Origin: Patescibacteria group bacterium
GTDB taxonomy: Bacteria; Patescibacteriota; Patescibacteriia; UBA10025; JAHIVO01
DNA: 64,000 nt
Direction of reading: 5' to 3'
Assembly: GCA_041660605.1 (NCBI GenBank)
Contig: JBAZWB010000001.1
Span: 462,879-526,878 of the forward strand
Below, in pieces: positions 1-10,840 of the stretch. A program made the position numbers and the translations under genes. The first letter of the stretch is position 1, and each line of letters starts with the position of its first letter. The notes under the pieces were generated by a model that ran no database searches, was not told the DNA's origin, and saw only the letters and a list, made by a program, of their open reading frames with translations.

Positions 1-21
1 AGGAAAATTGGTTACAACCCA

Positions 22-861
22 ATGGAGAGAAAGCTTGGCAGGCTGGGCATGGATGAGTACCGCGGTTTAGTCCAAGCTGTTAAAGATAAATATAGTATGC
101 GGGATGTTTTAAAAGCCTGGCAGGAACTCCATCCTGGTTCACTCGATGATTCAGAGAACAACAAAAAAGCCATACACCCGGTACAAAGGTGGTATCTGGA
201 AAAATTAGTCTATGGTCCGTCAATCGGTCGTTATATCGAGCGGGGAGACGACCAGCAGTTAAAATCACAGGTTTTATTTTTAGATTCTGAATTAATTAGC
301 CAGTCCGGAAGCTTGGGGGCTTTAAAGCATGGCCTTGAAGAATTAGGTTTAAATGAGGAAGATGGGCTTAATAAAGAGATGGTACAATATCGCACGCAGC
401 AGATAAAAGCCCAGGAAGTGCTACTGAATAATTTGATAAACCAAACATCTGATGACGTTAAGTCAACCGTTTATGCACACAACCCAAAACAAATGCAGGC
501 AGGAATAATTGAAGCGGCCATGAGGCTTTCAGATAAATTTAATGACAAAGAAGAAGCCAGGAAATGGGTGGAAGAGCATTGTACGATTTATGGCGGGCAC
601 TATCATACCGCTCATGAGGACATAGTAAAAATGCCCAAAGGCGTTGAGCCGGTCAAAGGCATGACTCGCCATTTCATCGGGCCGTGGGCGCAAAGACCAG
701 GCGGTTTGGCCAAGCTTTGGACAACAAATCCGCTGGCTGGCCATGATAACCCAGAAATTTTGACCGGACGCTTGGATGATCCCCAAAAAGAAGAGGTGAT
801 TGGCGTAAAAGAAGAGTTTCGGAGACTTTTTAATATAACCAAAAAAGTAGGTCGTAAATAG
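22..861 (+). CDS. hypothetical protein
   Basis: Long ORF with ATG at 22; no recognisable motif. Confidence 0.45.
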   Translation: MERKLGRLGMDEYRGLVQAVKDKYSMRDVLKAWQELHPGSLDDSENNKKAIHPVQRWYLEKLVYGPSIGRYIERGDDQQLKSQVLFLDSELISQSGSLGALKHGLEELGLNEEDGLNKEMVQYRTQQIKAQEVLLNNLINQTSDDVKSTVYAHNPKQMQAGIIEAAMRLSDKFNDKEEARKWVEEHCTIYGGHYHTAHEDIVKMPKGVEPVKGMTRHFIGPWAQRPGGLAKLWTTNPLAGHDNPEILTGRLDDPQKEEVIGVKEEFRRLFNITKKVGRK

Positions 862-1153
862 CAAGAAAAGAGTAATTAAAGTGGCTTATAGCGTATAGCT
901 TATAGTATTTGTTTTGTTGGATGACTGTTATAGAAAAAAGGCCATAGGCCAATAGATATAAGCTATTAGCTTTCCGTCGGCCTTGCCTTTTTTTTAGATT
1001 ATGTTACAATATAACCTGCTATTTTATTAGCAATAATTTATTAATAATCACACATGTTTTCCGACTGATTTGCCCCCTGGCCCTGGTTTTTTTAGTAAAA
1101 CGGGGCTGGCAAACCAGGTTGACGAAAACAGAGGTAAGAAAGGAATACAATTT

Positions 1154-1876
1154 ATGAAAGAGCTCTCATTGCTCGAAATGCTGAAGAGCGGTGTCCACTT
1201 TGGGCACCAAAAGAAGCGCTGGCATCCCAAAATGGCGAAGTTTATCCATTCCATCCGGGGCGGCGTGCACATTATTGACCTGGAAAAGACGGCCGAACAA
1301 CTGAATCTGGCCGGTGGTTTTATTAATCGGATAGTCGGCAGCGGACAGAAAATACTCTTTGTCGGCACCAAAAGACAAGCGCAGGCAAAAATGAAACAGG
1401 TTGCGGAATCTACGAAAATGCCTTACATAGTAGAACGCTGGATCGGGGGTGTTTTGACGAATTTTGAGAATATCTCCAGGCTGGTCAAAAGGCTGAAAGA
1501 TTTAAGGAAGAAAAGGGAAGCCGGCGAGCTGGTCAAATACACCAAACGCGAGCAGGTGAAATTTGACGAAGAAATTACCAATCTGGAAAAGTTAATCGGC
1601 GGCATACAGGATATGGAAAAGCTGCCTGCAGCCTTATTCATAATTGACATTAAAAGGGAGAAGACCGCTTTGCGCGAGGCGAAAAAGAAAAACATTCCAG
1701 TCATCGCCATAATTGATACAAACAACAATCCGGATCTGGTGGAATATCCCATCCCTGCCAATGATGATGCCGCAAAATCAATTGATTATATCCTTAATTT
1801 TTTGACAGAAACGATCAGCGAAGCCAGCATAAAAAAAGACATCAGCCAGAAGGATGAAGAAAAAAAGACTCAATAA
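1154..1876 (+). CDS. rpsB: 30S ribosomal protein S2
   Basis: MKELSLLEMLKSGVHFGHQKKRWHPKM... is a canonical S2 N-terminus. Start chosen at the internal ATG 1154, not the ORF-track start 1070. Confidence 0.9.
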   Translation: MKELSLLEMLKSGVHFGHQKKRWHPKMAKFIHSIRGGVHIIDLEKTAEQLNLAGGFINRIVGSGQKILFVGTKRQAQAKMKQVAESTKMPYIVERWIGGVLTNFENISRLVKRLKDLRKKREAGELVKYTKREQVKFDEEITNLEKLIGGIQDMEKLPAALFIIDIKREKTALREAKKKNIPVIAIIDTNNNPDLVEYPIPANDDAAKSIDYILNFLTETISEASIKKDISQKDEEKKTQ

Positions 1877-1896
1877 TTATTAGAAAAATTAAATAT

Positions 1897-2484
1897 ATGG
1901 CAATAACGACAGAAAATATAAAAAAGTTAAGGGAGCAGACCGGTGTCGGCATCATGGATGCAAAAACTGCCCTGAAAAATAATGACGGTGATTTCACTAA
2001 GGCGATTGACTATCTGAAAAAGCAGGGGCAGAAAGTTGCCGAGAAAAAACAGGATCGGAAGACAAAAGAAGGAGCTATCGGATATTATATTCATGCCAAT
2101 CACAAAGTAGCCGCACTGGTGGCGTTGGCTTGCGAAAGCGATTTTGTCGCCAATACAGATGATTTCCGTGATCTCGCCCATGATCTGGCTATGCAGGTAG
2201 CCGCAACAGATCCCACTTATATCAGCCCTAAGGATGTGCCGGCTGAGATAATTGGGAAAGAAAAAGAGATATATTCAGCCCAGCTGAAAAAAGATAAAAA
2301 ACCGGATAATATTATTGATAAAATAATAAAAGGCAAACTGGATAAATTCTATTCGGAAGTCTGCCTGATCAAGCAGCCATTCATCAAGGAAGACAAGAAA
2401 ACCATTGAAGACATTATCAATGAAAAAATTCTGAAACTGGGCGAGAATATCCAGATTAAAGAAATTAAAAAAATGTCTTTATGA
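1897..2484 (+). CDS. tsf: elongation factor Ts (short form)
   Basis: N-terminal UBA-like segment ITTENIKKLREQTGVGIMDAKTAL plus the dimerisation core; immediately downstream of rpsB, which is the conserved synteny. Confidence 0.9.
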   Translation: MAITTENIKKLREQTGVGIMDAKTALKNNDGDFTKAIDYLKKQGQKVAEKKQDRKTKEGAIGYYIHANHKVAALVALACESDFVANTDDFRDLAHDLAMQVAATDPTYISPKDVPAEIIGKEKEIYSAQLKKDKKPDNIIDKIIKGKLDKFYSEVCLIKQPFIKEDKKTIEDIINEKILKLGENIQIKEIKKMSL

Positions 2485-3278
2485 TAAAAAAAGTTGCTTC
2501 AGTTCAGTTCCAGCCGTGGGATCAGGTTTATCATTTTGAAGCTATAGACAGCCAGCTGAAACCTGGCAGTCAGGTTATCGTAAAAACCGATCTCGGCCTG
2601 GAATTAGGCCGGGTAGTTAATATTATAGAGGTAGAGGAAGCTACGCTTGACGCTCCTTTGAAGCCGATAATGAGACTGGCGACCATTGATGATATTGAGA
2701 AAGTTAAAAATTATGGATTGAAAAAAGAAGAGGTACTGGAAAAAAGCCGCTGGCTGGTAAAAAAGCACCAGCTGGACATGAAAGTTGTTGATTGCTTCTT
2801 TTCCTATGATGGGGGAAAAATTACTGTAATTTTTACCGCGGATGGCCGTGTTGATTTCCGCGAATTGGTTAAGGATCTGGCCAGGAGTTTCCAGAAATCT
2901 ATCAGGCTGCATCAGGTGGGAATTCGCGATGAAGCCAGGCGCATGGGCGGATTTGGGCAATGCGGCAGGGAACTGTGCTGCAGGAAGTTCATCAACCAAT
3001 TGCAGAGCGTACCGACTGACTACGCCCGCATTCAACAGGTCCACAGCCGGGGCAGTGACAGGATTTCCGGAAGCTGCGGACGCCTGATGTGCTGTTTGGC
3101 TTTTGAAGCCGAGTACTATCAGAAAGAAATGAAAAATTTTCCTCCCCTGGAAAGCCGGGTTAAAACCCGTCAGGGAGAAGGCAAGGTTATCTCCTGCAAT
3201 GTGTTGAAAAAAACAGTGTCAGTTGCTATAAATAAAGATATTATGGAGCTGCCATTAAAGGAAGTTAAGAAAATATGA
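2481..3278 (+). CDS. PSP1 C-terminal domain protein (RicT/YaaT-like)
   Basis: Cys-rich PSP1 signature CGRELCCRKF ... SCGRLMCCLAFE; start overlaps the tsf stop (ATGA). Confidence 0.7.
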   Translation: MIKKVASVQFQPWDQVYHFEAIDSQLKPGSQVIVKTDLGLELGRVVNIIEVEEATLDAPLKPIMRLATIDDIEKVKNYGLKKEEVLEKSRWLVKKHQLDMKVVDCFFSYDGGKITVIFTADGRVDFRELVKDLARSFQKSIRLHQVGIRDEARRMGGFGQCGRELCCRKFINQLQSVPTDYARIQQVHSRGSDRISGSCGRLMCCLAFEAEYYQKEMKNFPPLESRVKTRQGEGKVISCNVLKKTVSVAINKDIMELPLKEVKKI

Positions 3279-4138
3279 CCCCAGATTTTATTGCCATTGG
3301 CTTAATTATTATTTTTATCGGAGTGGTGGTTTTTATTCTGGCGAAAAAATTTCCCGTCATTTCTTCCATTGATGTTACCGGCCTGGAAAGCCATAAGCAG
3401 GAGAAGCGGAAGAAGGATTTGATTTCCAGAAGGCTGCAGCGCAAATTAGGAATATTCAAGCTAAAACAGAAAATATCCGGTTCTAATGAAATTGCCGGCC
3501 AAGATTCAATTTTTAAACGTTTTCACGGATTTGTTAAAAAATTAGAAAACCAATATCAGGAAAAAATCCGGAAAGTAGAGCCTCTAGAAGAGGGAAGTGC
3601 TGATAAGAAAAAAATGGTTTTGATGCACGAGGCAAAAGAATTAGCGTCTCAGCAAAAATTCAAAGAAGCTGAAGAAAAATACATTGAAGTTATCAGCCTG
3701 GACAACAAGTATAATGAAGCATATGAGCATCTGGCGGAAGTTTATGTTGAACAGAAAGATTATACCCACGCAAAGGAAATTTATGAATTTCTCTTGAAAT
3801 CCAGCAGTACCGCAAAAACAGATGATGGATCCGGTGACGCAGGTACGGCCATAAGAGGGCAAGTAAATGCGGTTTCACTAAATAAGGAAGTAGCAGAATA
3901 TCATATCGGACTGGGGGAGGTATTTCTTTCTTTGGGGAACACTGCGGAGGCATGGAAAAACTTCGAAGAAGCAATAAAACTTGAACCGAATAATCCGCGA
4001 AATTTGGATTTAATAATTTCCGCGGCTATCCAGCTTAAAGACAAAAAATCAGCTTTGCAGTATATTGAAAAATTAAAAACAGCTAATTCGGAAAATGAAA
4101 AGCTTGATGATTTTAAAAGGCAAGCCGACGAATTATAA
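3275..4138 (+). CDS. membrane-anchored TPR-repeat protein
   Basis: N-terminal TM helix, then TPR-like repeats (YNEAYEHLAEVYVEQKDYTHAKEIYEFLL; AEAWKNFEEAIKLEPNNP); ATGA overlap with the upstream gene. Confidence 0.55.
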   Translation: MTPDFIAIGLIIIFIGVVVFILAKKFPVISSIDVTGLESHKQEKRKKDLISRRLQRKLGIFKLKQKISGSNEIAGQDSIFKRFHGFVKKLENQYQEKIRKVEPLEEGSADKKKMVLMHEAKELASQQKFKEAEEKYIEVISLDNKYNEAYEHLAEVYVEQKDYTHAKEIYEFLLKSSSTAKTDDGSGDAGTAIRGQVNAVSLNKEVAEYHIGLGEVFLSLGNTAEAWKNFEEAIKLEPNNPRNLDLIISAAIQLKDKKSALQYIEKLKTANSENEKLDDFKRQADEL

Positions 4139-4204
4139 ATTTTTGTTTAGTTTTTAAAATTTTTTACCTTATAGTCTACCCACCGGCAAGTAGGCTCAGC
4201 TTGC

Positions 4205-4225
4205 CCCGCCTAGTTTAGGCGGGGT
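4205..4225. repeat. REP-like GC-rich palindrome, empty form (CCCCGCCTA gtt TAGGCGGGG)
   Basis: Perfect 9-bp arms. The same arm sequence flanks tRNA-Thr(GGT) at 4396-4487. Confidence 0.5.
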
Positions 4226-4405
4226 GAAGTAGAACAACTCCGCGCGTGAATAGTTGTTACGGATTACGTGTCCGCAAACAAGTTACGGCCACTTCACCCT
4301 TCGCAACATTCCCGCTTTTTCCTAAAAATGCCAAGCATTTTTAGGAATTGATAATTTAAAATTATTTATAGTAGTTAATCTAGAGGCTCAGCTTGCCCCG
4401 CCTCA

Positions 4406-4478
4406 GCCGATGTAGCTCAGTTGGTAGAGCAACTCCATGGTAAGGAGTAGGTCGTCGGTTCAATTCCGACCATCGGCT
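4406..4478 (+). tRNA. tRNA-Thr (anticodon GGT)
   Basis: Manual fold: acceptor GCCGATG/CATCGGC, D arm GCTC-AGTTGGT-AGAGC, anticodon arm ACTCC-ATGGTAA-GGAGT, T arm GTCGG-TTCAATT-CCGAC. 73 nt, no encoded CCA. Confidence 0.85.
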
Positions 4479-4480
4479 GA

Positions 4481-4636
4481 GGCGGGGTGAAGTAGAGCAA
4501 CTCCAGGCAAAGTCCTATACCCAAAACGAAAAGCTGTGGTATGTGAGTAAGAAGATCAGGGTTCCCCCGCCACAATAAATTTAATCTATTTATGTAGGGC
4601 GGGGTCCGCCTTTGGCGGAAATTCCGACCATCGGCT
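4481..4636 (+). pseudogene. degenerate tRNA-Thr(GGT)-like duplicate
   Basis: Keeps ...AGAGCAACTCC (D arm 3' strand through anticodon-stem 5' strand) and ATTCCGACCATCGGCT (T loop through acceptor). About 115 nt of unrelated sequence replaces the anticodon region. Confidence 0.4.
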
Positions 4637-4824
4637 TAGAGCGGGTAATACTACGGTTCCAGGATCACAGGCTTGACTGTTTTATATAAAGATAGTAAAT
4701 TCATAAGTTATTTTACAATGGTTTGTTCGGATACTAGCACCGAATAGCCTCACCAGGTGGGCAGGTACCCCCGGCATGCGCCGGGGCAGGCTCCGTGGTC
4801 AGTCTCTGTATTAACAACTATAGA

Positions 4825-4884
4825 GAATTAATGATCAAGTCATATAAAGGCGGAGAAGCTTTTAAGAGGCTCATTAAGAAATAA
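4825..4884 (+). pseudogene. 3'-terminal remnant of a second GIY-YIG gene copy
   Basis: Encodes ...LMIKSYKGGEAFKRLIKK*, nearly identical to the last 19 codons of the 5070..5312 gene, directly after L copy A. Confidence 0.55.
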
Positions 4885-4967
4885 ATAACCTCACCAGGTG
4901 GGCAGGTACCCCCGGCATACGCCGGGGCAGGCTCCGTGGTTAATCTCTGTATTAACAACTATGAAGT

Positions 4968-5003
4968 GGGTGGGTACCGAAGTGGTCAAACGGGGCAGAC
5001 TGT
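4968..5003 (+). pseudogene. tRNA-Tyr 5' half (through anticodon position 34/35) followed by unrelated insert
   Basis: Identical to the first 36 nt of the intact tRNA-Tyr at 5396, then diverges at ...GACTGT|CCCGCC. The AAATCTGC motif of the anticodon loop/stem reappears 52 nt later. Confidence 0.5.
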
Positions 5004-5069
5004 CCCGCCACAAAAAATAATATTGAATGAAGGCGGGATGCCGCCAGAGGCGGCATAAATCTGCATAAT

Positions 5070-5312
5070 ATGTTTAATGTCTATATATTAATAAGTCTGA
5101 GTTCAAGTTATTATTATATTGGTCACACAGTAAATATAGTTAAAAGGCTTAAGCAGCATAATTCAGGACATGTAAGGTCTACAAAAAGAGGTATCCCTTG
5201 GATATTAGTTTATAAAGAAATATGTAAGACAAAATCGGAAGCATACAAAAGGGAATTATTAATTAAATCATATAAAGGCGGAGAAGCTTTTAAGAGGCTC
5301 ATTAAGAAATAA
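5070..5312 (+). CDS. small GIY-YIG nuclease family protein (Slx1/YhbQ-like URI domain)
   Basis: YILISLSSSYYYIGHTVNIVKRLKQHNSG...RGIPWILVYKE...KSEAYKRELLIK matches the GIY-YIG consensus (GIY, YIG, R, E, N). Confidence 0.8.
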   Translation: MFNVYILISLSSSYYYIGHTVNIVKRLKQHNSGHVRSTKRGIPWILVYKEICKTKSEAYKRELLIKSYKGGEAFKRLIKK

Positions 5313-5321
5313 ATAACCTCA

Positions 5322-5625
5322 CCAGGTGGGCAGGTACCCCCGGCATACGCCGGGGCAGGCTCCGTGGTTATTCTCTGTATTAACAACTATGAAGTGGGTG
5401 GGTACCGAAGTGGTCAAACGGGGCAGACTGTAAATCTGCTGGCTCCGGCCTACGTAGGTTCGAACCCTACCCCACCCACTTCATAGTTGTCCTTAAGGAG
5501 ACTGCTTGTGCCGCCGAATGGCGGCATAAATCTGCTGGCTCTCCTCGAGTCTGAGCGACGAGGTCGCTAGTCCTCGGAGTCGATGACCGGCCTACGTAGG
5601 TTCAAACCCTACCCTGCCCACCTGG
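5322..5625 (+). other. nested tRNA-like structure enclosing tRNA-Tyr, with co-varying acceptor strands
   Basis: 5' CCAGGTGGGCAGG-TA-CCCC(CGGCATACGCC)GGGG-CAG... at 5322-5360. 3' ...AAATCTGCTGGCTC[46-nt insert]CGGCC-TAC-GTAGG-TTCAAAC-CCTAC-CCTGCCC-A-CCTGG at 5528-5625. The 13-bp outer stem pairs perfectly. Confidence 0.25.
5396..5478 (+). tRNA. tRNA-Tyr (anticodon GTA), class II with long variable arm
   Basis: Acceptor GGGTGGG/CCCACCC, anticodon arm GCAGA-CTGTAAA-TCTGC, variable arm TGGCTCCGGCC, T arm GTAGG-TTCGAAC-CCTAC. Flanked by an 18-bp perfect extended stem. Confidence 0.85.
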
Positions 5626-5665
5626 AGAGAGTTATTCAGAAGTAGTTTGTCCCGCCATAGCTGCT

Positions 5666-5737
5666 GCCACCCTAGCTCAGTGGTAGAGCAACGGTTTTGT
5701 AAACCGTAGGTCGTCGGTTCAAGTCCGACGGGTGGCT
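5666..5737 (+). tRNA. tRNA-Thr (anticodon TGT)
   Basis: Acceptor GCCACCC/GGGTGGC, D arm GCTC-AGTGGT-AGAGC, anticodon arm ACGGT-TTTGTAA-ACCGT, T arm GTCGG-TTCAAGT-CCGAC. 72 nt; flanked by CCCGCCATAG / CTATGGCGGG. Confidence 0.85.
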
Positions 5738-5740
5738 ATG

Positions 5741-5808
5741 GCGGGATAAAGTAGAGCAACGGTTTTGTAAACCGTAGGTCGGGGGTTCGAATCCCTTCGC
5801 TGGCTCCA
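5741..5808 (+). pseudogene. chimeric tRNA pseudogene
   Basis: Copies tRNA-Thr(TGT) D-arm 3' strand through variable loop (AGAGCAACGGTTTTGTAAACCGTAGGTC), then a different T arm/acceptor ending in CCA. The 5' acceptor does not pair with the 3' strand. Confidence 0.35.
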
Positions 5809-5849
5809 GCCAAAATTATAAATAAATCATTAAAATGTAATAAAAATTT

Positions 5850-6005
5850 ATGTCACAGGACAATTTGTTAAAATTTGAATGCAAGGAATGCCATCACATC
5901 AATTACCATTCCAAAAAGAATAAAAAAATTCTGAAGAACAGGATTGAATTGAAAAAATTCTGCAAATGGTGCAAAAAACATACCTTGCATAAGGAAACGA
6001 AATAA
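5850..6005 (+). CDS. rpmG: 50S ribosomal protein L33
   Basis: 51-aa ORF below the ORF-track cutoff: [51 protein letters not shown]. Zinc-ribbon C..C...C..C and C-terminal HTLHKETK are typical L33. Confidence 0.85.
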
Positions 6006-6144
6006 TGTTGAAAACCCCTTTCAGAAAGTGGTTTTCAATGCTTTCCGCAAACTAGATGATTCGCTCGCCCTGAAATGTCATGCCAGAGGCAGATCCGTCT
6101 TTGGCGGAAATTCAGGGCTCGCGGTTGATAAAATAAATTTTCAG

Positions 6145-6219
6145 GGGAGCATAGTGAAATGGCTATCACAAGGGTCTCCAAAACCCTTATTCTAGGTTCG
6201 AGTCCTAGTGCTCCCGCCA
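6145..6219 (+). tRNA. tRNA-Trp (anticodon CCA), CCA end encoded
   Basis: Acceptor GGGAGCA/TGCTCCC, anticodon arm AGGGT-CTCCAAA-ACCCT, T arm CTAGG-TTCGAGT-CCTAG, then GCCA. Confidence 0.85.
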
Positions 6220-6516
6220 GTGTCCGCCAACGGGCGCTTAGAGTGGAAAACTTTTCTAAAGAAATTTATAGTTAGAATCATGTTCAGCAAGGACATGGTG
6301 TATTTTGCATTAAATATATATTTTCTTTAACATTAAAATGAGGGAGGAAACGACGAATTTGTCACAAAAGAAATAGACGTCGGATAAGGAGCGGGTTAAC
6401 CCCCCCCCTCTTTTTTTGTGCTCAGCGGAAAATTTTACCACCCACGAAGCCAAAAAATAAAAAACCAGGCAAAGGCCCGGTTTTCCAGTTAGAGTACAAT
6501 TCGCTAAAGGAACAGA

Positions 6517-6879
6517 TTATGCTGCTCGTGTCCCGAACCACGAAGGTGGTTCAACGGGCTTCTCTCTTTCGGCGTCTGGTGGCATCAGTTCCGGGCAGTG
6601 TTCATCGATGATCATTTCCAGTTCCACACGTCGTTTTTGCTCCCAGACGTAGCGCTGGAATAGCTCGTTTACATACCACTGAACCAGCTCACCCACGCGA
6701 GCTCCGAATCGACGAGCCAGCATGTCGGTGAATTTCCTGTTCAGGCGTTCTTTCCAGTTTCGGCAAACCTGAAGCGTGATATTCAACCGTCTCATTTTTG
6801 CCAGACCTTCTTCATTCATGAGGTACCTCATTTCCGTAGCAGTTGTGAAAACTACATTATTGTAACTTTCTGCTACCAC
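6517..6879 (-). CDS. hypothetical protein in a compositionally atypical (GC-richer) segment
   Basis: 120-aa ORF, basic and W/R-rich. Local sequence is visibly GC-richer than its flanks. Confidence 0.35.
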   Translation of the reverse strand: MVAESYNNVVFTTATEMRYLMNEEGLAKMRRLNITLQVCRNWKERLNRKFTDMLARRFGARVGELVQWYVNELFQRYVWEQKRRVELEMIIDEHCPELMPPDAEREKPVEPPSWFGTRAA

Positions 6880-7165
6880 CGAATGAGGAGCATATTAGTC
6901 TAGCATATTCGTCATTTTTGTCAATAGCAGCTATGCTAAATCCACAGATTCGTAGAGAAAGGTTCTAACTTTCTCTACTAGCCCCCGCCAACAGGGCTAA
7001 TTGGCACACCATTAACTATGATGTATCAATTTTTGTAATTCTTGACATATTGAATTATTCATTTTGTAATCAAATGATTTCAAGCTAAATTATTGCTTAA
7101 TACGAACTTAATCACTGCTATGCTAAGCTTAGATTTAACCTTGAATTAACTAAATTTTTTAATAT

Positions 7166-7366
7166 ATGAAATTAATTGTCTGTAAAGAAGTTTCGGGGAT
7201 AATTACCTGCTATTTTATTGCCCGCGCGGATAATGCGATGGGTGCGAAAGAAATGTTGAAAAAGCATGGCTATGCCGCGCATCCAAAATGGATGTATAGT
7301 TTAACTGAAGACGAAATGAGATCTGTGGAGGTCAGGATGAGCGAAATGATGAAGGAGGAGAAATAA
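7166..7366 (+). CDS. small hypothetical protein
   Basis: 66-aa ORF directly upstream of the PEBP gene. Confidence 0.35.
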   Translation: MKLIVCKEVSGIITCYFIARADNAMGAKEMLKKHGYAAHPKWMYSLTEDEMRSVEVRMSEMMKEEK

Positions 7367-7371
7367 AATCG

Positions 7372-7824
7372 TTGAAGTTTATGAGATTAACAAGTCCACA
7401 TTTTAATAACAATAAATCAATACCTTCCAGGTTTACTTGTGAAGGTGAAAACATCAATCCACGCCTGGAAATTTACGATGTTCCGGAAACGGCGAAAAGC
7501 CTGGTTTTGATCATGGAAGATCCGGACGCTACTATTGGTATTTTTGATCATTGGCTGATCTGGAATATGCCCGTTGATCAATCCGGAATCGGCGAAAACA
7601 GCACGCCTCCGGGAATCCAGGGCGTAAATTCTGCGGGCAAAAACGGTTATATTGGGCCGTGTCCGCCTACTGGCGAACACCGTTATTTTTTCAATCTTTA
7701 CGCTCTGGACACTAATATTTCACTGGACCGCACGACCGGCAAAGCCAGGCTGCATCAGGCGATGTCCGGTCATATTGTTGCTCAGACGCAATTAATCGGC
7801 AGATATAAGCGTTCAAAATTATAA
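7372..7824 (+). CDS. YbhB/YbcL family PEBP (Raf kinase inhibitor-like) protein
   Basis: DPDAT...HWLIWN...GxNSxGxxGYxGPCPPxGxHRYxFxLYALD is the PEBP family signature. Confidence 0.8.
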   Translation: MKFMRLTSPHFNNNKSIPSRFTCEGENINPRLEIYDVPETAKSLVLIMEDPDATIGIFDHWLIWNMPVDQSGIGENSTPPGIQGVNSAGKNGYIGPCPPTGEHRYFFNLYALDTNISLDRTTGKARLHQAMSGHIVAQTQLIGRYKRSKL

Positions 7825-8035
7825 AGCGATTACTTCATTACCACTCTGATTTAGTGCATAAAAGGCATTTGATACTTTTTTCTGTACTTTCTGTAACCCC
7901 GGTACCACGCGCTTCGCTTGGGTACGGGGCAGGCCAGAAAGTACCAAAGAGTTCCGTCCGTGCTGCGTAATCTTGAAAATTGGGCTCATCATCGCTATCG
8001 ACCCACAACCGCTTCGCTTGAGTGGGCTCGATTCC

Positions 8036-8053
8036 CCGCCCATGGGCGGGGAT
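8036..8053. repeat. REP-like perfect palindrome CCCCGCCCATGGGCGGGG
   Basis: 18-nt perfect palindrome of the same CCCCGCC/GGCGGGG family. Nearby direct repeats CGCTTCGCTTGGGTAC / CGCTTCGCTTGAGTGGGC. Confidence 0.5.
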
Positions 8054-8272
8054 CGCTCCTCTTCACTCCAATTTTACTACGATTACTCCGCAATGGGCGG
8101 GTTCAATAATGATGCAATTAAAATCTGGTTTCAATGCCATTAAAATTTTTTGTCGATTAGTTTTTCAAATTACCAATCGAGAAAATAAAAGTTATTTGCC
8201 TTTTTTATTTAGATGAGAGACAATTAATTTATAAATAACTAATCATTAAAGGGGTCGAAGGGGGAAATCATT

Positions 8273-10840
8273 ATGAACAAACAAAAAAATGGGCAGAAAA
8301 AATGCCTTTTTATTATGGTTAGCCTGGTCGTCCTGGGTTTTTTTGGTGTTTTATTTTTAACTCCGCAACCGGCGGCGGCTCAGGTAATGGACTGGACGCA
8401 AGTCGGCACCAGCGGCTTTGGTGACATTAATAATTATGTCATCTATACCTTAGTTGAGTATCAGGGGAATCTGTACACTGGTACGTCAAATTCAAATACC
8501 GGAGTGGAAATTTGGGAATTTGACGGTACGGACTGGACTCAAGTGAATACCGACGGTTTCGGCGATGTCAATAATGTTGAGAGCACCGCACTTATTGAAT
8601 TTGGCGGCAAACTTTTGGTTGGCACTACGAATGAGGTGACCGGACCTGAAGTTTGGAGCTATGACGGCACAGACTGGACGCAGATCAATACCGATGGTTT
8701 CGGCGATCCAACCAATAGTATGGCATATAATTTCAGCATTTTTCAGGATAAGCTTTACGCCGGAATTGCAAATTTGGCGACAGGTACGGAAATCTGGCAG
8801 TATGACGGCACAGACTGGACGCAGGTCAATACTGACGGATTCGGGAACGCCAGCAATAGCTACAGTATGGGTATGACAGAATATAATGGTAGTCTTTATG
8901 TGGGCACTTTTAGCTTAGTTCCAGCTCAGTCTGGAACGTTCTGGAAATTTGACGGCATAAACTGGACGCAGGTAGGTGATGATGGGTTTGGAAATGTTAA
9001 CAATGCGGGAATTTATGATGAAAAAGTTATTAGCGGCATCATGTATATTGCCACCAGGAACGATACGGAGGGAGCCGAGATATGGACATTTGACGGGACC
9101 GATCTAGTACAGCTAGAAAATGGCGGCTTTGGTGATGCCAATAATACTACAGCATTTAGTTTAGTAAAATACAATCATAAATTATTTGTCAGCACCACCA
9201 ATAACATTACCGGGACTGAAATTTGGTCCTATGACGGATCAACATGGGAGCAGGTGAATGAAGATGGTTTCGGCGATGCCGCCAATTTTAGCGGTCCTTT
9301 GCTGGCAACCAATGACGGCTGGCTATACGGAGGCACAATTCATTTTTTAAGCGGCGCGGAATTGTGGCGGGCAGAAGCGGCGGATACTGCCGGCCCGGCA
9401 ATCAGCGCGCAGTCGCCGGCTGAAGGATCAAATACAGCAGCGCAGGATACGAATATTTCATTTTCATTAACTGACGCAGGATTAGAAGTTGATAGCGCCA
9501 GCCTGAACGTTAGAGTAGCGGGCCAGGCCGCCATAACCGATGGTGAGTTTGCGGACGGTTTTTCCGGCACTATCACTAATGACGGCGCTTGGGGCTTTGA
9601 AGTCGAAATTAATCCAGACAGTAATTTCCTCAACGGTCAACAGGTTGCCGTTACAGTGGCAGTCAGCGATACACGGGGCAACCCAAGCAATCTTGACTGG
9701 ACTTTTAATATTATTGGCCGAAATTCTTTGGGAATCGTGATGACACCGGCCTCCAAAGGCGGCCCGAATGTCCGGGTGGTTGACTCGGCTGGCCAGCAGA
9801 TTTCCTCTTTCTTTGCCTATGATTCCACATTACGTATGGGCCTACAGGTTGAACAAGCGGATATTGATGGCGATCAGACTAATGAGATTGTAGTCACACC
9901 GGGGCAAGGCGTGGAATCGCGCATTAAAGCCTTTGAATTAAATGGACAGGAAATTGCCTCGACCCTGACTTATAATGAAGGTTTTACAGGCGGTGTAGCT
10001 CTGACTACCGGAGATTTTAACGGCGATGGCAGGGAAGAAATCGTAGTCGCGCCAATATCCAGCGGCGGGCCGAATGTCCGTTTGTATGCCTTAAACGCTG
10101 CGGGTGACGGCTTTACTTTGCTGGATTGGTTTTTTGCTTATCAGGAAGGCTTTCGCGGCGGTGTAAATCTGGCAGCCGGCGATATTATCGGGCACGATGG
10201 GATTGACGAACTGGTGGTTACTCCGCGCGGGCAGGGCGGCCCGAATGTCCGGGTTTATCATTACAATACGGTGACAGGAAATTTTGAGCTGGTTGACTGG
10301 GTCATGGCATACGCAGCCGGCTACCACGGCGGTGTGCAGGTAGCCACCGGCGACATTAACGGCGACGGACAAGATGACATTATCGTTTCGCCTTATCTGA
10401 ACGGCGGTCCGAATATCCGCGTTTATACAATTAACGAAGATTCAAAACTAGAACTCTTAAGCTGGGTCATGGCTTACCAAAATTCATATCGCGGCACACT
10501 CTCCATGTCAGTCGGGGATATTGACGGCGACGGATTGGGAGAAATCGTCCTGGCACCGAAAACGCTTGGCGGCCCCAACGTACGAATTTATCGCTATGAG
10601 AATGGAGCATTATCTTTGGTTGACTGGTTTCTGCCGTATGACGAAGGTTTCCGCGGAGGCGTGAATTTATTTGTCGGCGATACTGACGGCGATAATATGG
10701 CGGAAGTGATTACCTCGCCGGCTTCCCAGGGGGGACCGAATGTCCGCGTCTATGACCTGGATTCCGGCACCCGGATTCTGAAAAGCTGGTTCTGGGCCTT
10801 CCCCCAGGGTTTTCGCGGCGGGGTGAATTTCGGGAAGTAG
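8273..10840 (+). CDS. large secreted repeat protein: about eight ~50-aa DGTDWTQVNTDGFGD repeats, Ig-like middle, seven FG-GAP/VCBS-like repeats
   Basis: Signal/TM N-terminus; tandem repeats visible at DNA level; C-terminal GDxxGDGxxE...GGPNVRVY units. Confidence 0.7.
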   Translation: MNKQKNGQKKCLFIMVSLVVLGFFGVLFLTPQPAAAQVMDWTQVGTSGFGDINNYVIYTLVEYQGNLYTGTSNSNTGVEIWEFDGTDWTQVNTDGFGDVNNVESTALIEFGGKLLVGTTNEVTGPEVWSYDGTDWTQINTDGFGDPTNSMAYNFSIFQDKLYAGIANLATGTEIWQYDGTDWTQVNTDGFGNASNSYSMGMTEYNGSLYVGTFSLVPAQSGTFWKFDGINWTQVGDDGFGNVNNAGIYDEKVISGIMYIATRNDTEGAEIWTFDGTDLVQLENGGFGDANNTTAFSLVKYNHKLFVSTTNNITGTEIWSYDGSTWEQVNEDGFGDAANFSGPLLATNDGWLYGGTIHFLSGAELWRAEAADTAGPAISAQSPAEGSNTAAQDTNISFSLTDAGLEVDSASLNVRVAGQAAITDGEFADGFSGTITNDGAWGFEVEINPDSNFLNGQQVAVTVAVSDTRGNPSNLDWTFNIIGRNSLGIVMTPASKGGPNVRVVDSAGQQISSFFAYDSTLRMGLQVEQADIDGDQTNEIVVTPGQGVESRIKAFELNGQEIASTLTYNEGFTGGVALTTGDFNGDGREEIVVAPISSGGPNVRLYALNAAGDGFTLLDWFFAYQEGFRGGVNLAAGDIIGHDGIDELVVTPRGQGGPNVRVYHYNTVTGNFELVDWVMAYAAGYHGGVQVATGDINGDGQDDIIVSPYLNGGPNIRVYTINEDSKLELLSWVMAYQNSYRGTLSMSVGDIDGDGLGEIVLAPKTLGGPNVRIYRYENGALSLVDWFLPYDEGFRGGVNLFVGDTDGDNMAEVITSPASQGGPNVRVYDLDSGTRILKSWFWAFPQGFRGGVNFGK

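Follow-up and report, generated by a model that had tools for sequence, protein, structure and literature searches.

In a 64-kb stretch of a 960-kb contig from a Patescibacteria genome (candidate phyla radiation, CPR), here called the window, an intact gene for the tyrosine transfer RNA, tRNA-Tyr(GTA), is wrapped by a second, tRNA-like sequence that we refer to as the shell. On balance, we consider it probable that this outer sequence is a disabled tRNA-Tyr(GTA) copy belonging to a small mobile cassette built around the gene for an 80-amino-acid (80-aa) Slx1-like GIY-YIG nuclease, and the best reading of the shell is that of a relic or junction of such a tRNA-gene-resident cassette. Rather than being spliced, the shell is probably co-transcribed with the tRNA cluster and lost during processing of the nested tRNA. 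The nuclease gene, a stand-alone and intact open reading frame (ORF) of the Slx1-like or UPF0213 type, lies at 5070–5312 (PF01541, E 1.4e-17), and the 5′ piece of the shell begins 15 nucleotides (nt) past its stop codon. The gene order at the locus is rpsB, tsf, a PSP1 gene, a TPR gene, the tRNA cluster, rpmG and tRNA-Trp, and ARAGORN together with Rfam identified four intact tRNAs in the window, namely Thr(GGT) at 4405–4479, Tyr(GTA) at 5396–5478, Thr(TGT) at 5666–5737 and Trp at 6145–6219. The nuclease gene, the shell and the older units upstream of them all lie on the plus strand.

A first-pass annotation of this DNA had described a tRNA-Tyr-like 5′ piece and 3′ part around the intact tRNA-Tyr, a 13-bp outer pairing and a 46-nt insert in the variable arm, and in these respects it holds: a second tRNA-Tyr-derived sequence does wrap the intact gene, and its two parts are present as described. 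The outer inverted repeat covers 17 nt at 94% complementarity and is perfect over 13 bp, while the longest perfect inverted repeat was at most 11 nt in all 300 shuffles of 5300–5640. Its 5′ strand (5318–5334) reads CTCACCAGGT-GGGCAGG, that is, a 10-nt extension followed by the shell acceptor strand GGGCAGG (5328–5334), and its 3′ strand (5613–5629) reads CCTGCCC-ACCTGGAGAG, with the 3′ strand of the extension, CCTGGAGAG, at 5621–5629. The 5′ piece of the shell (5328–5361) has the structure GGGCAGG-TA-C-[CCCCGGC ATAC GCCGGGG]-CAGGCT, in which a GC hairpin with a 7-bp stem and a 4-nt loop (CCCCGGC-ATAC-GCCGGGG, 5338–5355) occupies the place of the D arm. This hairpin contains no D loop of its own, the sole D-loop-like residue being the CCGTGGT outside it, and equivalents with compensating stem changes occur in other genomes (loci L084, L147, L049 and L145) and also across phyla. 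In the following segment, CAGGCT plus CCGTGGT (5356–5368), GGGG together with CAGGCT corresponds to tRNA-Tyr positions 22–33, and CCGTGGT (5362–5368), which resembles a D-arm remnant, is invariant in L084 and L147 and changed by one base (CCGCGGT) in L049 and L145. The nested tRNA-Tyr itself (acceptor GGGTGGG/CCCACCC; ARAGORN; Rfam tRNA, 60.5 bits) is bordered by a leader (5369–5395) and a trailer (5479–5504), and 5372–5395 of the leader pairs with the trailer in an inverted repeat of 31 nt at 84%. The trailer ends in GGAGACTG (5497–5504), which is the decayed anticodon-stem 5′ strand of the shell plus C32, U33 and G34; the L147 equivalent is an intact GGGCAGACTG in the context AAAC-TAGT-GGGCAGACTG. 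Next comes a plug in the shell's anticodon loop (5505–5527), composed of CTTGT, the hairpin GCCGCC-GAAT-GGCGGC (5510–5525) and AT and conserved in L084 and L147, and then AAATCTGC plus TGGCTC (5528–5541), in which the anticodon arm is completed by its 3′ half and the variable arm begins. The hairpin-forming insert in the variable arm is exactly 46 nt long (5542–5587), is found in this genome only and is absent from L147 and L084. The remainder of the variable arm, the T arm (GTAGG TTCAAAC CCTAC), the acceptor strand CCTGCCC and A73 follow at 5588–5620, a segment 91% identical to 5445–5479, and with the insert set aside the 3′ part of the shell (5527–5541 plus 5588–5620) matches the intact tRNA-Tyr at all but three positions, of which two lie in the acceptor strand and one in the T loop. 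The shell thus keeps most tRNA-Tyr positions and carries four lesions, which are the D-arm hairpin, the nested gene with its leader/trailer helix, the plug between G34 and U35 and the variable-arm hairpin.

The exchange of both acceptor strands relative to the nested gene had been taken as compensatory change that argues against random decay. The shell is indeed not random debris, as its design recurs in L084 and L147; however, the "compensatory" change is a difference between two natural tRNA-Tyr alleles, because GGGCAGG/CCTGCCC is the acceptor stem of the intact tRNA-Tyr of L082, and alleles of the GGGTGGG/CCCACCC type are intact in other Patescibacteria. The shell also has two sequences that could stand for an anticodon stem. 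One, GGGGCAGGCT (5352–5361), matches positions 22–33 of the L145 tRNA-Tyr allele; we rejected its reading as a mere by-product of the hairpin as the sole explanation, since the working tRNA-Tyr of L145, with the anticodon stem GCAGG/CCTGC, has exactly that sequence. As both this copy and the second one at 5497–5504 are tRNA-derived, the shell is, on sequence grounds, layered. One possible parse is a copy with a substituted D arm whose anticodon loop contains everything else, and another is a near-complete tRNA-Tyr with inserts at 9/10, at about 20/21, at 34/35 and in the variable arm.

The shell's 5′ piece also forms part of a repeat, L, that is present three times at 95% identity (copy A, 4743–4821; copy B, 4884–4962; copy C, 5312–5390), and a 3′ partner exists for copy C only. 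The oldest version of the outer 5′ piece is copy A; fused to it is the truncated 3′ end of a GIY-YIG ORF (4822–4884, ending in ..KSYKGGEAFKRLIKK*), which we read as the remnant of an earlier cassette unit, and a direct repeat joins 4817–5003 to 5245–5431 at 96%. Downstream of copy B stands an orphan tRNA-Tyr 5′ part (4968–5003) that ends in the anticodon loop (..GACTGT), is identical to 5396–5431 and has the same design in relatives. The loop of this orphan is filled by a two-hairpin plug (5004–5056), consisting of H1 (5004–5037, CCCGCC..GGCGGG), H2 (5040–5054, GCCGCC AGA GGCGGC) and AT, after which AAATCTGC (5057–5064) supplies what remains of the anticodon loop together with the stem's 3′ strand, and tRNA homology stops. 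The orphan and its copy at 5396–5431 therefore flank the plug and the ORF, with one tRNA-Tyr copy kept intact. From L copies A and B, the truncated older ORF and the orphan 5′ part, it follows that the locus is a stack of at least three partly deleted units.

Patescibacteria commonly encode homologues of the 80-aa protein (47–69% identity), and others are found in Ignavibacteria, Bacteroidota, Omnitrophota and further groups. We surveyed 80 homologous loci from species-representative genomes and found a tRNA gene within 600 nt in 75 of them, mostly 1–25 nt past the stop codon and on the same strand. The neighbouring tRNAs are mostly Tyr and Ser but include Pro, Thr, Cys, Gln, Glu and Gly, at least nine identities being represented. 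On the far side of the ORF, 54 of the 80 loci carry a partial copy of the neighbouring tRNA, and 66 of 71 partial-copy segments are 100% identical to the tRNA. Break points are concentrated at index 14–15 in the D loop (n = 15) and 35–36 in the anticodon loop (n = 16), with fewer in the variable and T regions. A conserved module, H1H2 (CCACCGCC-N-GGCGGGGT-KCCGCC-N-GGCGGM), is present in 15 of the 80 loci, nearly always within the anticodon loop of the orphan (Tyr, Ser or Thr) and always at TG-TAA(A) or NG-AAA in 7-nt loops, the module ends being not independently defined. GC hairpins pile up beside the ORF, with 59 within 50 nt upstream, and 71 of the 80 loci have one within 150 nt. In Bacteroidales (L041, L054 and L069), a normal tRNA-Pro is followed by repeated units of a GIY-YIG ORF and a tRNA-Pro copy, and these copies carry GCCCCGCC-GTT-GGCGGGGT in place of the D arm, which is the design of the L repeat; since ARAGORN labels them as ordinary tRNAs, tRNA counts there are inflated. 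Several ORF copies occur at different tRNAs within single metagenome-assembled genomes (MAGs), as at L027 (Tyr) and L033 (Ser), whose proteins are 62% identical. A scan of viral contigs gave two weak matches only, so the family is rare in viral contigs and not mainly phage-borne. Near-perfect inverted repeats of 9–19 bp, unrelated in sequence between loci, were also seen to abut acceptor stems (L002–L084, L145–L147), and at L053 (2492–2790) the GIY-YIG frame has no stop before tRNA-Tyr and reads on into the tRNA, up to the TAA in its anticodon loop.

Among 35 homologues of the 80-aa protein, Y5, Y16, G18, R26, H30, N31 and E62 are invariant, and the nearest solved structures, 1ywl and 1zg2, are UPF0213 proteins of 96–107 aa. 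The catalytic domain spans the protein from end to end, with no separate DNA-binding domain, and the protein's score against the group I intron endonuclease model is far under the cutoff. The inserted segment holds no integrase, the GIY-YIG protein being its only ORF, and, with hairpin-ended miniature elements of the IS200/IS605 type as a comparison, no HUH (Y1) transposase is evident among the ORFs at 1–9000, where no search aimed at TnpA was made.

We then compared the locus with seven syntenic loci obtained via the neighbouring TPR protein, and with L053. The closest relatives of the TPR protein are about 47% identical, so this is not a strain-level comparison, and the EF-Ts and PSP1 proteins of the syntenic relatives are together 60–68% identical to those of the window. 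L083 and L146 have a plain tRNA-Tyr with neither shell nor ORF. L082 has a 3′ remnant of the ORF, a 5′ orphan with a hairpin and the intact tRNA-Tyr with the GGGCAGG/CCTGCCC acceptor. The ORF is present in L145 and L053, together with orphans whose D loop and T or anticodon loop bear hairpins, and L147 and L084 show a shell and nest of the window type without the ORF, which is missing at four of the seven syntenic relatives. This presence/absence variation at an orthologous rpsB-tsf-PSP1-TPR-tRNA site, together with the build-up of tandem units in the window and the ORF copies at different tRNAs within single MAGs, is evidence for mobility, as are the ORF identities. At the same locus the ORF is 40% identical to that of the window in L145 and 65% in L053, while other phyla reach 60–69%; the contrast with L145 points to independent invasions.

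L147, L084 and the window share the order of the shell parts, beginning with the acceptor 5′ strand, TA, a hairpin (CCCCGGC/GCCGGGG or TCCCGGC/GCCGGGA) and CAGGCTCCGTGGT, continuing through the leader, the intact tRNA-Tyr, the trailer and (AAAC..)GGGCAGACTG, and ending with CYTGT, the hairpin GCCGCC-N4-GGYKGY, A, TAAATCTGC and the remaining tRNA sequence. The shell allele of L147 has the T stem GGGAG/CCCTC and the acceptor strand CCTGCCC, the nested allele has GTAGG/CCTAC and TCCGCCC, and both allele types are working genes in other genomes. The shell-bearing genomes are not grouped by EF-Ts and PSP1 identity (L084 and L147 are 62–68% identical to the window), and the conservation of the shell modules is therefore better explained if they are cis-acting parts of the cassette than by vertical descent. 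Each lineage has lesions of its own: the 46-nt insert and the decayed GGAGACTG in the window, a T loop reading TTTGAAT (C56 lost) and an A:C pair in the T stem in L147, and a T-loop insert of about 90 nt, a hairpin mismatch and a tandem duplicate of the 3′ part in L084. Alignment of relatives was a check proposed by the first-pass annotation, and in it the 3′ part behaves as a decaying duplicate whose lesions differ per lineage, the very pattern which that annotation had set against its own proposal. Tandem 3′ parts are also present in L082. In L084 (5345–5660) the shell 3′ part and the trailer of the nested gene are repeated with a period of about 193 nt, and each copy has the T-loop insert of about 90 nt. 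A metagenome scan with the pattern GGTACCCCCG-N8-20-CAGGCTCCG returned 60 stretches, of which only L115, the L084 contig, was genuine and the others were chance matches in GC-rich DNA; for this reason no larger alignment of L was built.

These observations fit a model in which cassettes of the nuclease family would reside in tRNA genes and leave one tRNA copy intact (here 5396–5478), so that the host would lose nothing. The other copy would persist as fragments with breaks at loop positions, and conserved GC hairpins of the types CCCCGCC..GGCGGGG and GCCGCC..GGCGGC would sit in its loops and arms. We infer that the Slx1-type structure-specific nuclease may cut tRNA-gene DNA at the loops, perhaps in an extruded or single-stranded cloverleaf, and that the break may be repaired by copying the occupied allele, with the tRNA-like arms serving as homology. 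One intact tRNA would always be regenerated, and the other copy would have hairpin plugs at the former target positions, which would either destroy the target in the disabled copy or represent the cis-acting ends of the cassette. Since the intact copy would stay cleavable, tandem units would accumulate, and repeated rounds at one site would produce the three L copies, the truncated older nuclease gene and the orphan 5′ half with its two-hairpin plug.

Several points weigh against this model. Cleavage, target site and movement by the 80-aa nuclease are predictions from sequence, the protein amounts to a catalytic domain alone, and its Slx1-like/UPF0213 relatives are usually taken for repair enzymes passed on vertically (PMC1564403). 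Between the window and L084, the L core is identical at 43 of 46 nt, although the flanking intergenic DNA is unalignable, the motifs CAGGCTCCGTGGT and ACTGYYTGTGCCGCC are conserved, and the stems of the hairpins, the outer helix and the leader/trailer helix change in compensating ways. Compensating stems together with a conserved L core look like selection on the shell itself, which would be unexpected for a pure relic, as would the finding that a single nested fold takes in the whole 317-nt unit (5316–5632; z = −10.2). Genomes that have shell modules in common are entirely unlike in the nested tRNA and its flanks, which simple homing of a single cassette does not predict; the tRNA-Thr(GGT) nest is found in nearly all family members, so that some nests are old and stable; and the near-universal 100% identity of orphan and intact copies could reflect gene conversion rather than recent insertion. 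An explanation that would take up several of these features is that the shell RNA helps to make the nested tRNA-Tyr, its helices acting like the processing stalks of ribosomal RNA operons, for example as RNase III sites, and the GC hairpins preventing tRNA-like shell segments from mispairing with the functional tRNA. The L147 unit likewise folds stably (z = −6.1), the extension of the outer helix has changed between the window and L147 and is still paired, and leaders and trailers that are unrelated in sequence from one genome to the next pair in all four (the window, L147, L084 and L082). D-arm hairpin stems co-vary, pairing of H2 in L147 is maintained via two G:U pairs, and about 18% of 168 tRNAs in the fetched loci have acceptor-abutting helices of at least 9 bp, as against about 4 pairs in shuffles. 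Nevertheless, we judge such a scaffold unlikely: a plain tRNA-Tyr suffices in L083 and L146, and the nuclease gene, the partnerless orphan halves and the tandem L copies would be left unexplained. Moreover, the helices are Watson-Crick in 252 of 262 columns with equal numbers of G:T and A:C mismatches (4 versus 4), which gives no pointer to sense RNA over DNA palindromes. A scan for promoters and terminators gave results at chance level. A bolder form of the cassette model, which we put forward as tentative and itself unlikely, is that GC hairpins, tRNA-like arms and nuclease make up an unrecognised mobile system that inserts cargo at tRNA-gene loops via folded-DNA recognition, with the shell as a functional end and not a relic. 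Such a system would recognise cloverleaf or hairpin DNA instead of a sequence, it could carry as cargo the nuclease gene, an entire tRNA gene as replacement or a structured RNA of about 110 nt, and it would survive by always regenerating one working tRNA.

The first-pass annotation had instead proposed that the outer parts are spliced around the nested gene into a mature tRNA, with CTCCAAA or CTCTAAA as the anticodon loop. However, the shell retains its own anticodon-stem 5′ strand at 5497–5504, its loop reads CTG-plug-TAAA, that is, GTA (Tyr), and no new anticodon arises. ARAGORN with intron options and relaxed thresholds, the intron-aware check that had been suggested, did not find an outer tRNA, and the extra calls at -ps80 were unrelated apart from a partial Thr(TGT) copy. 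Rfam, searched at the gathering threshold and at E ≤ 5 over 4100–6300, returned the four intact tRNAs and neither a group I intron nor any other family. After in-silico removal of the central insert, none of 56 products was called a tRNA even at a relaxed threshold; calls appear only if the 46-nt insert is taken out too, with an anticodon that changes with the arbitrary choice of boundary. No bulge-helix-bulge motif is present at 5361/5362 or 5527/5528 in the minimum-free-energy fold of 5316–5632, the fold being inspected without a dedicated search for this motif. The shell is thus not supported as a spliceable tRNA gene, and that its parts are exons of a functional or split tRNA-like RNA, joined or held by the 13–17-bp helix after insert removal, is very improbable, even though the acceptor stem with A73 and the T arm are intact, the outer helix is extended, L084 and L147 retain the design, and removal of both inserts allows ARAGORN to call a tRNA. 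No ribozyme or known RNA family was found with Rfam, at least three separate excisions would be required with a D arm that is replaced and not interrupted, and an intact tRNA-Tyr(GTA) with the same anticodon sits inside. The comparative data had already disfavoured this proposal, as L083 and L146 do without a shell, the disabling lesions are lineage-specific (C56 lost in L147, the T-loop insert in L084), and L copies A and B are unpaired. We also know of no protein-dependent tRNA splicing pathway in bacteria, which we count against it. Plain local duplication by slippage or unequal recombination followed by decay, with the GIY-YIG gene an unrelated neighbour, would account for direct repeats spaced 428 nt apart, for the tandem 3′ parts of L084 and L082 and for orphans identical to the adjacent tRNA. 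We hold it to be quite improbable, given that 75 of 80 loci, from several phyla and with at least nine tRNA identities, have the nuclease gene close beside a tRNA, that hairpin modules of conserved sequence occupy the break points, that the break points are restricted to loops, and that the L core is conserved although the EF-Ts and PSP1 proteins are 62–68% identical. An artefact in a repeat-rich metagenomic contig is scarcely credible: the assembly is from short reads (k141) and the repeats measure 79–187 nt, but the same architecture recurs in many independent NCBI, JGI and ENA assemblies, including the complete chromosome of L053 (CP181398).

Among known systems, the closest structural analogue would seem to be the partial tRNA duplicate left by an integrase: integrative elements, in work attributed to Williams in 2002, reportedly insert in tRNA genes and leave a partial tRNA duplicate (attL/attR). 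Insertion within a tRNA gene, one intact copy with a partial copy opposite, sublocations in the anticodon and T loops, and an orthologous site that is occupied in some relatives and empty in others are all shared with them. However, the cassette has no integrase and measures only 0.3–0.5 kb, its orphans are both 5′ and 3′ and carry conserved GC hairpins, D-loop sites are common, and whole tRNA genes are nested in an orphan. In function, the closest analogue appears to be the free-standing GIY-YIG endonuclease SegB of the T4 tRNA cluster, likewise encoded amid tRNA genes and sporadically distributed, which promotes inheritance of itself and the flanking tRNA region (PMC2330249). Seg proteins have DNA-binding domains, whereas the window protein is an 80-aa Slx1-like catalytic domain of predicted activity, and no partial tRNA duplicates, nests or hairpin plugs have been described at Seg loci. 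Traits of homing endonucleases are nonetheless seen in the window family, with intact catalytic motifs, a patchy distribution and a phylogeny discordant with that of the hosts. In Patescibacteria, tRNA genes also harbour group I introns, ribozymes of 184–894 nt of which a few have HNH or LAGLIDADG genes, and these share with the shell both the phylum and the interruption of the anticodon loop (positions 33–37), including that of Tyr and Thr (PMC13011429). Here, in contrast, no Rfam intron is present, the plugs are 23–53 nt long, and function is kept by a duplicate gene and not by splicing. The multi-intron, split and permuted tRNAs of archaea resemble the shell in their D, anticodon, variable and T-loop interruptions and complementary leaders and trailers (PMC3978253). 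Those fragmented tRNAs need bulge-helix-bulge motifs and the archaeal splicing endonuclease, and their pieces are the sole source of the tRNA (PMC3978253); the window, by contrast, comes from a bacterium (rpsB, tsf) and retains an intact copy, and one arm of the shell has been replaced instead of interrupted. At the sequence level the window protein is a member of the prokaryotic Slx1-like proteins (UPF0213), with a minimal GIY-YIG domain and no accessory domain, and an association of such proteins with tRNA genes is not mentioned in a 2006 survey (PMC1564403) or in other searchable literature. We found no description of Slx1-like GIY-YIG genes in duplicated, hairpin-plugged tRNA genes in the literature, which is incompletely searchable, and the cassette is apparently an undescribed variant of homing or integrative elements.

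Other tRNA genes of the cluster have comparable surroundings. tRNA-Thr(GGT) is similarly nested (4192–4241, 4384–4504 and 4566–4646) in an outer Thr-like sequence, AGGCTCAGCTTG..TGAAGTAGAGCAACTCC, whose D loop bears the hairpin CCCCGCCT/AGGCGGGG, empty at 4192–4241 and containing the whole intact tRNA at 4384–4504, and whose T loop holds a two-hairpin module (4567–4619). The same nest occurs in L053, L082, L083, L084, L146 and L049, and its flanking hairpin is found in the compensating variants CCCCGCC, TCCCGTC, CCCCACC and CCCCGCTGC. Downstream of an orphan tRNA-Thr piece, a conserved non-coding element of about 110 nt (4242–4346) has homologues in L145, L049 and L084 (nhmmer) and, by eye, in L146 and L053. 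It has no Rfam match, and the RNAalifold consensus of six sequences shows compensatory double changes in 17 of 28 predicted pairs; the element may be an unknown structured RNA that travels with tRNA nests. In the tRNA-Thr(TGT) region (5643–5808), the gene is flanked by TCCCGCCATAGC/GCTATGGCGGGA and followed by a second tRNA-Thr(TGT) 3′ part (5751–5808) with its own acceptor strand and CCA, which ARAGORN calls at the relaxed threshold only. Upstream of tRNA-Trp, a T-arm-like relic (6060–6125, CCCTGAA..AATTCAGGG) is split by the hairpins TGCC-AGA-GGCA and TCCGTC-TTT-GGCGGA, the second nearly identical to the hairpin at 4605–4619. In L082 a gene for a tyrosine recombinase of the phage integrase family (6232–7044) adjoins tRNA-Trp, where the window has unrelated small ORFs.

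In the ultra-small, genome-reduced Patescibacteria tRNA genes are single-copy and essential, and an element that carries or regenerates a spare copy would be an alternative to self-splicing introns in such genomes. A cassette of this kind would explain odd tRNA fragments and pseudo-tRNAs with hairpin D arms that lie beside small genes annotated as "GIY-YIG nuclease family protein" in several phyla, and with it bacteria would have an equivalent of the fragmented archaeal tRNA genes. Where MAGs contain nested copies, tRNA counts and inferences on codon usage can be misled, and the cassette model would give the minimal Slx1-like nucleases of prokaryotes a testable role.

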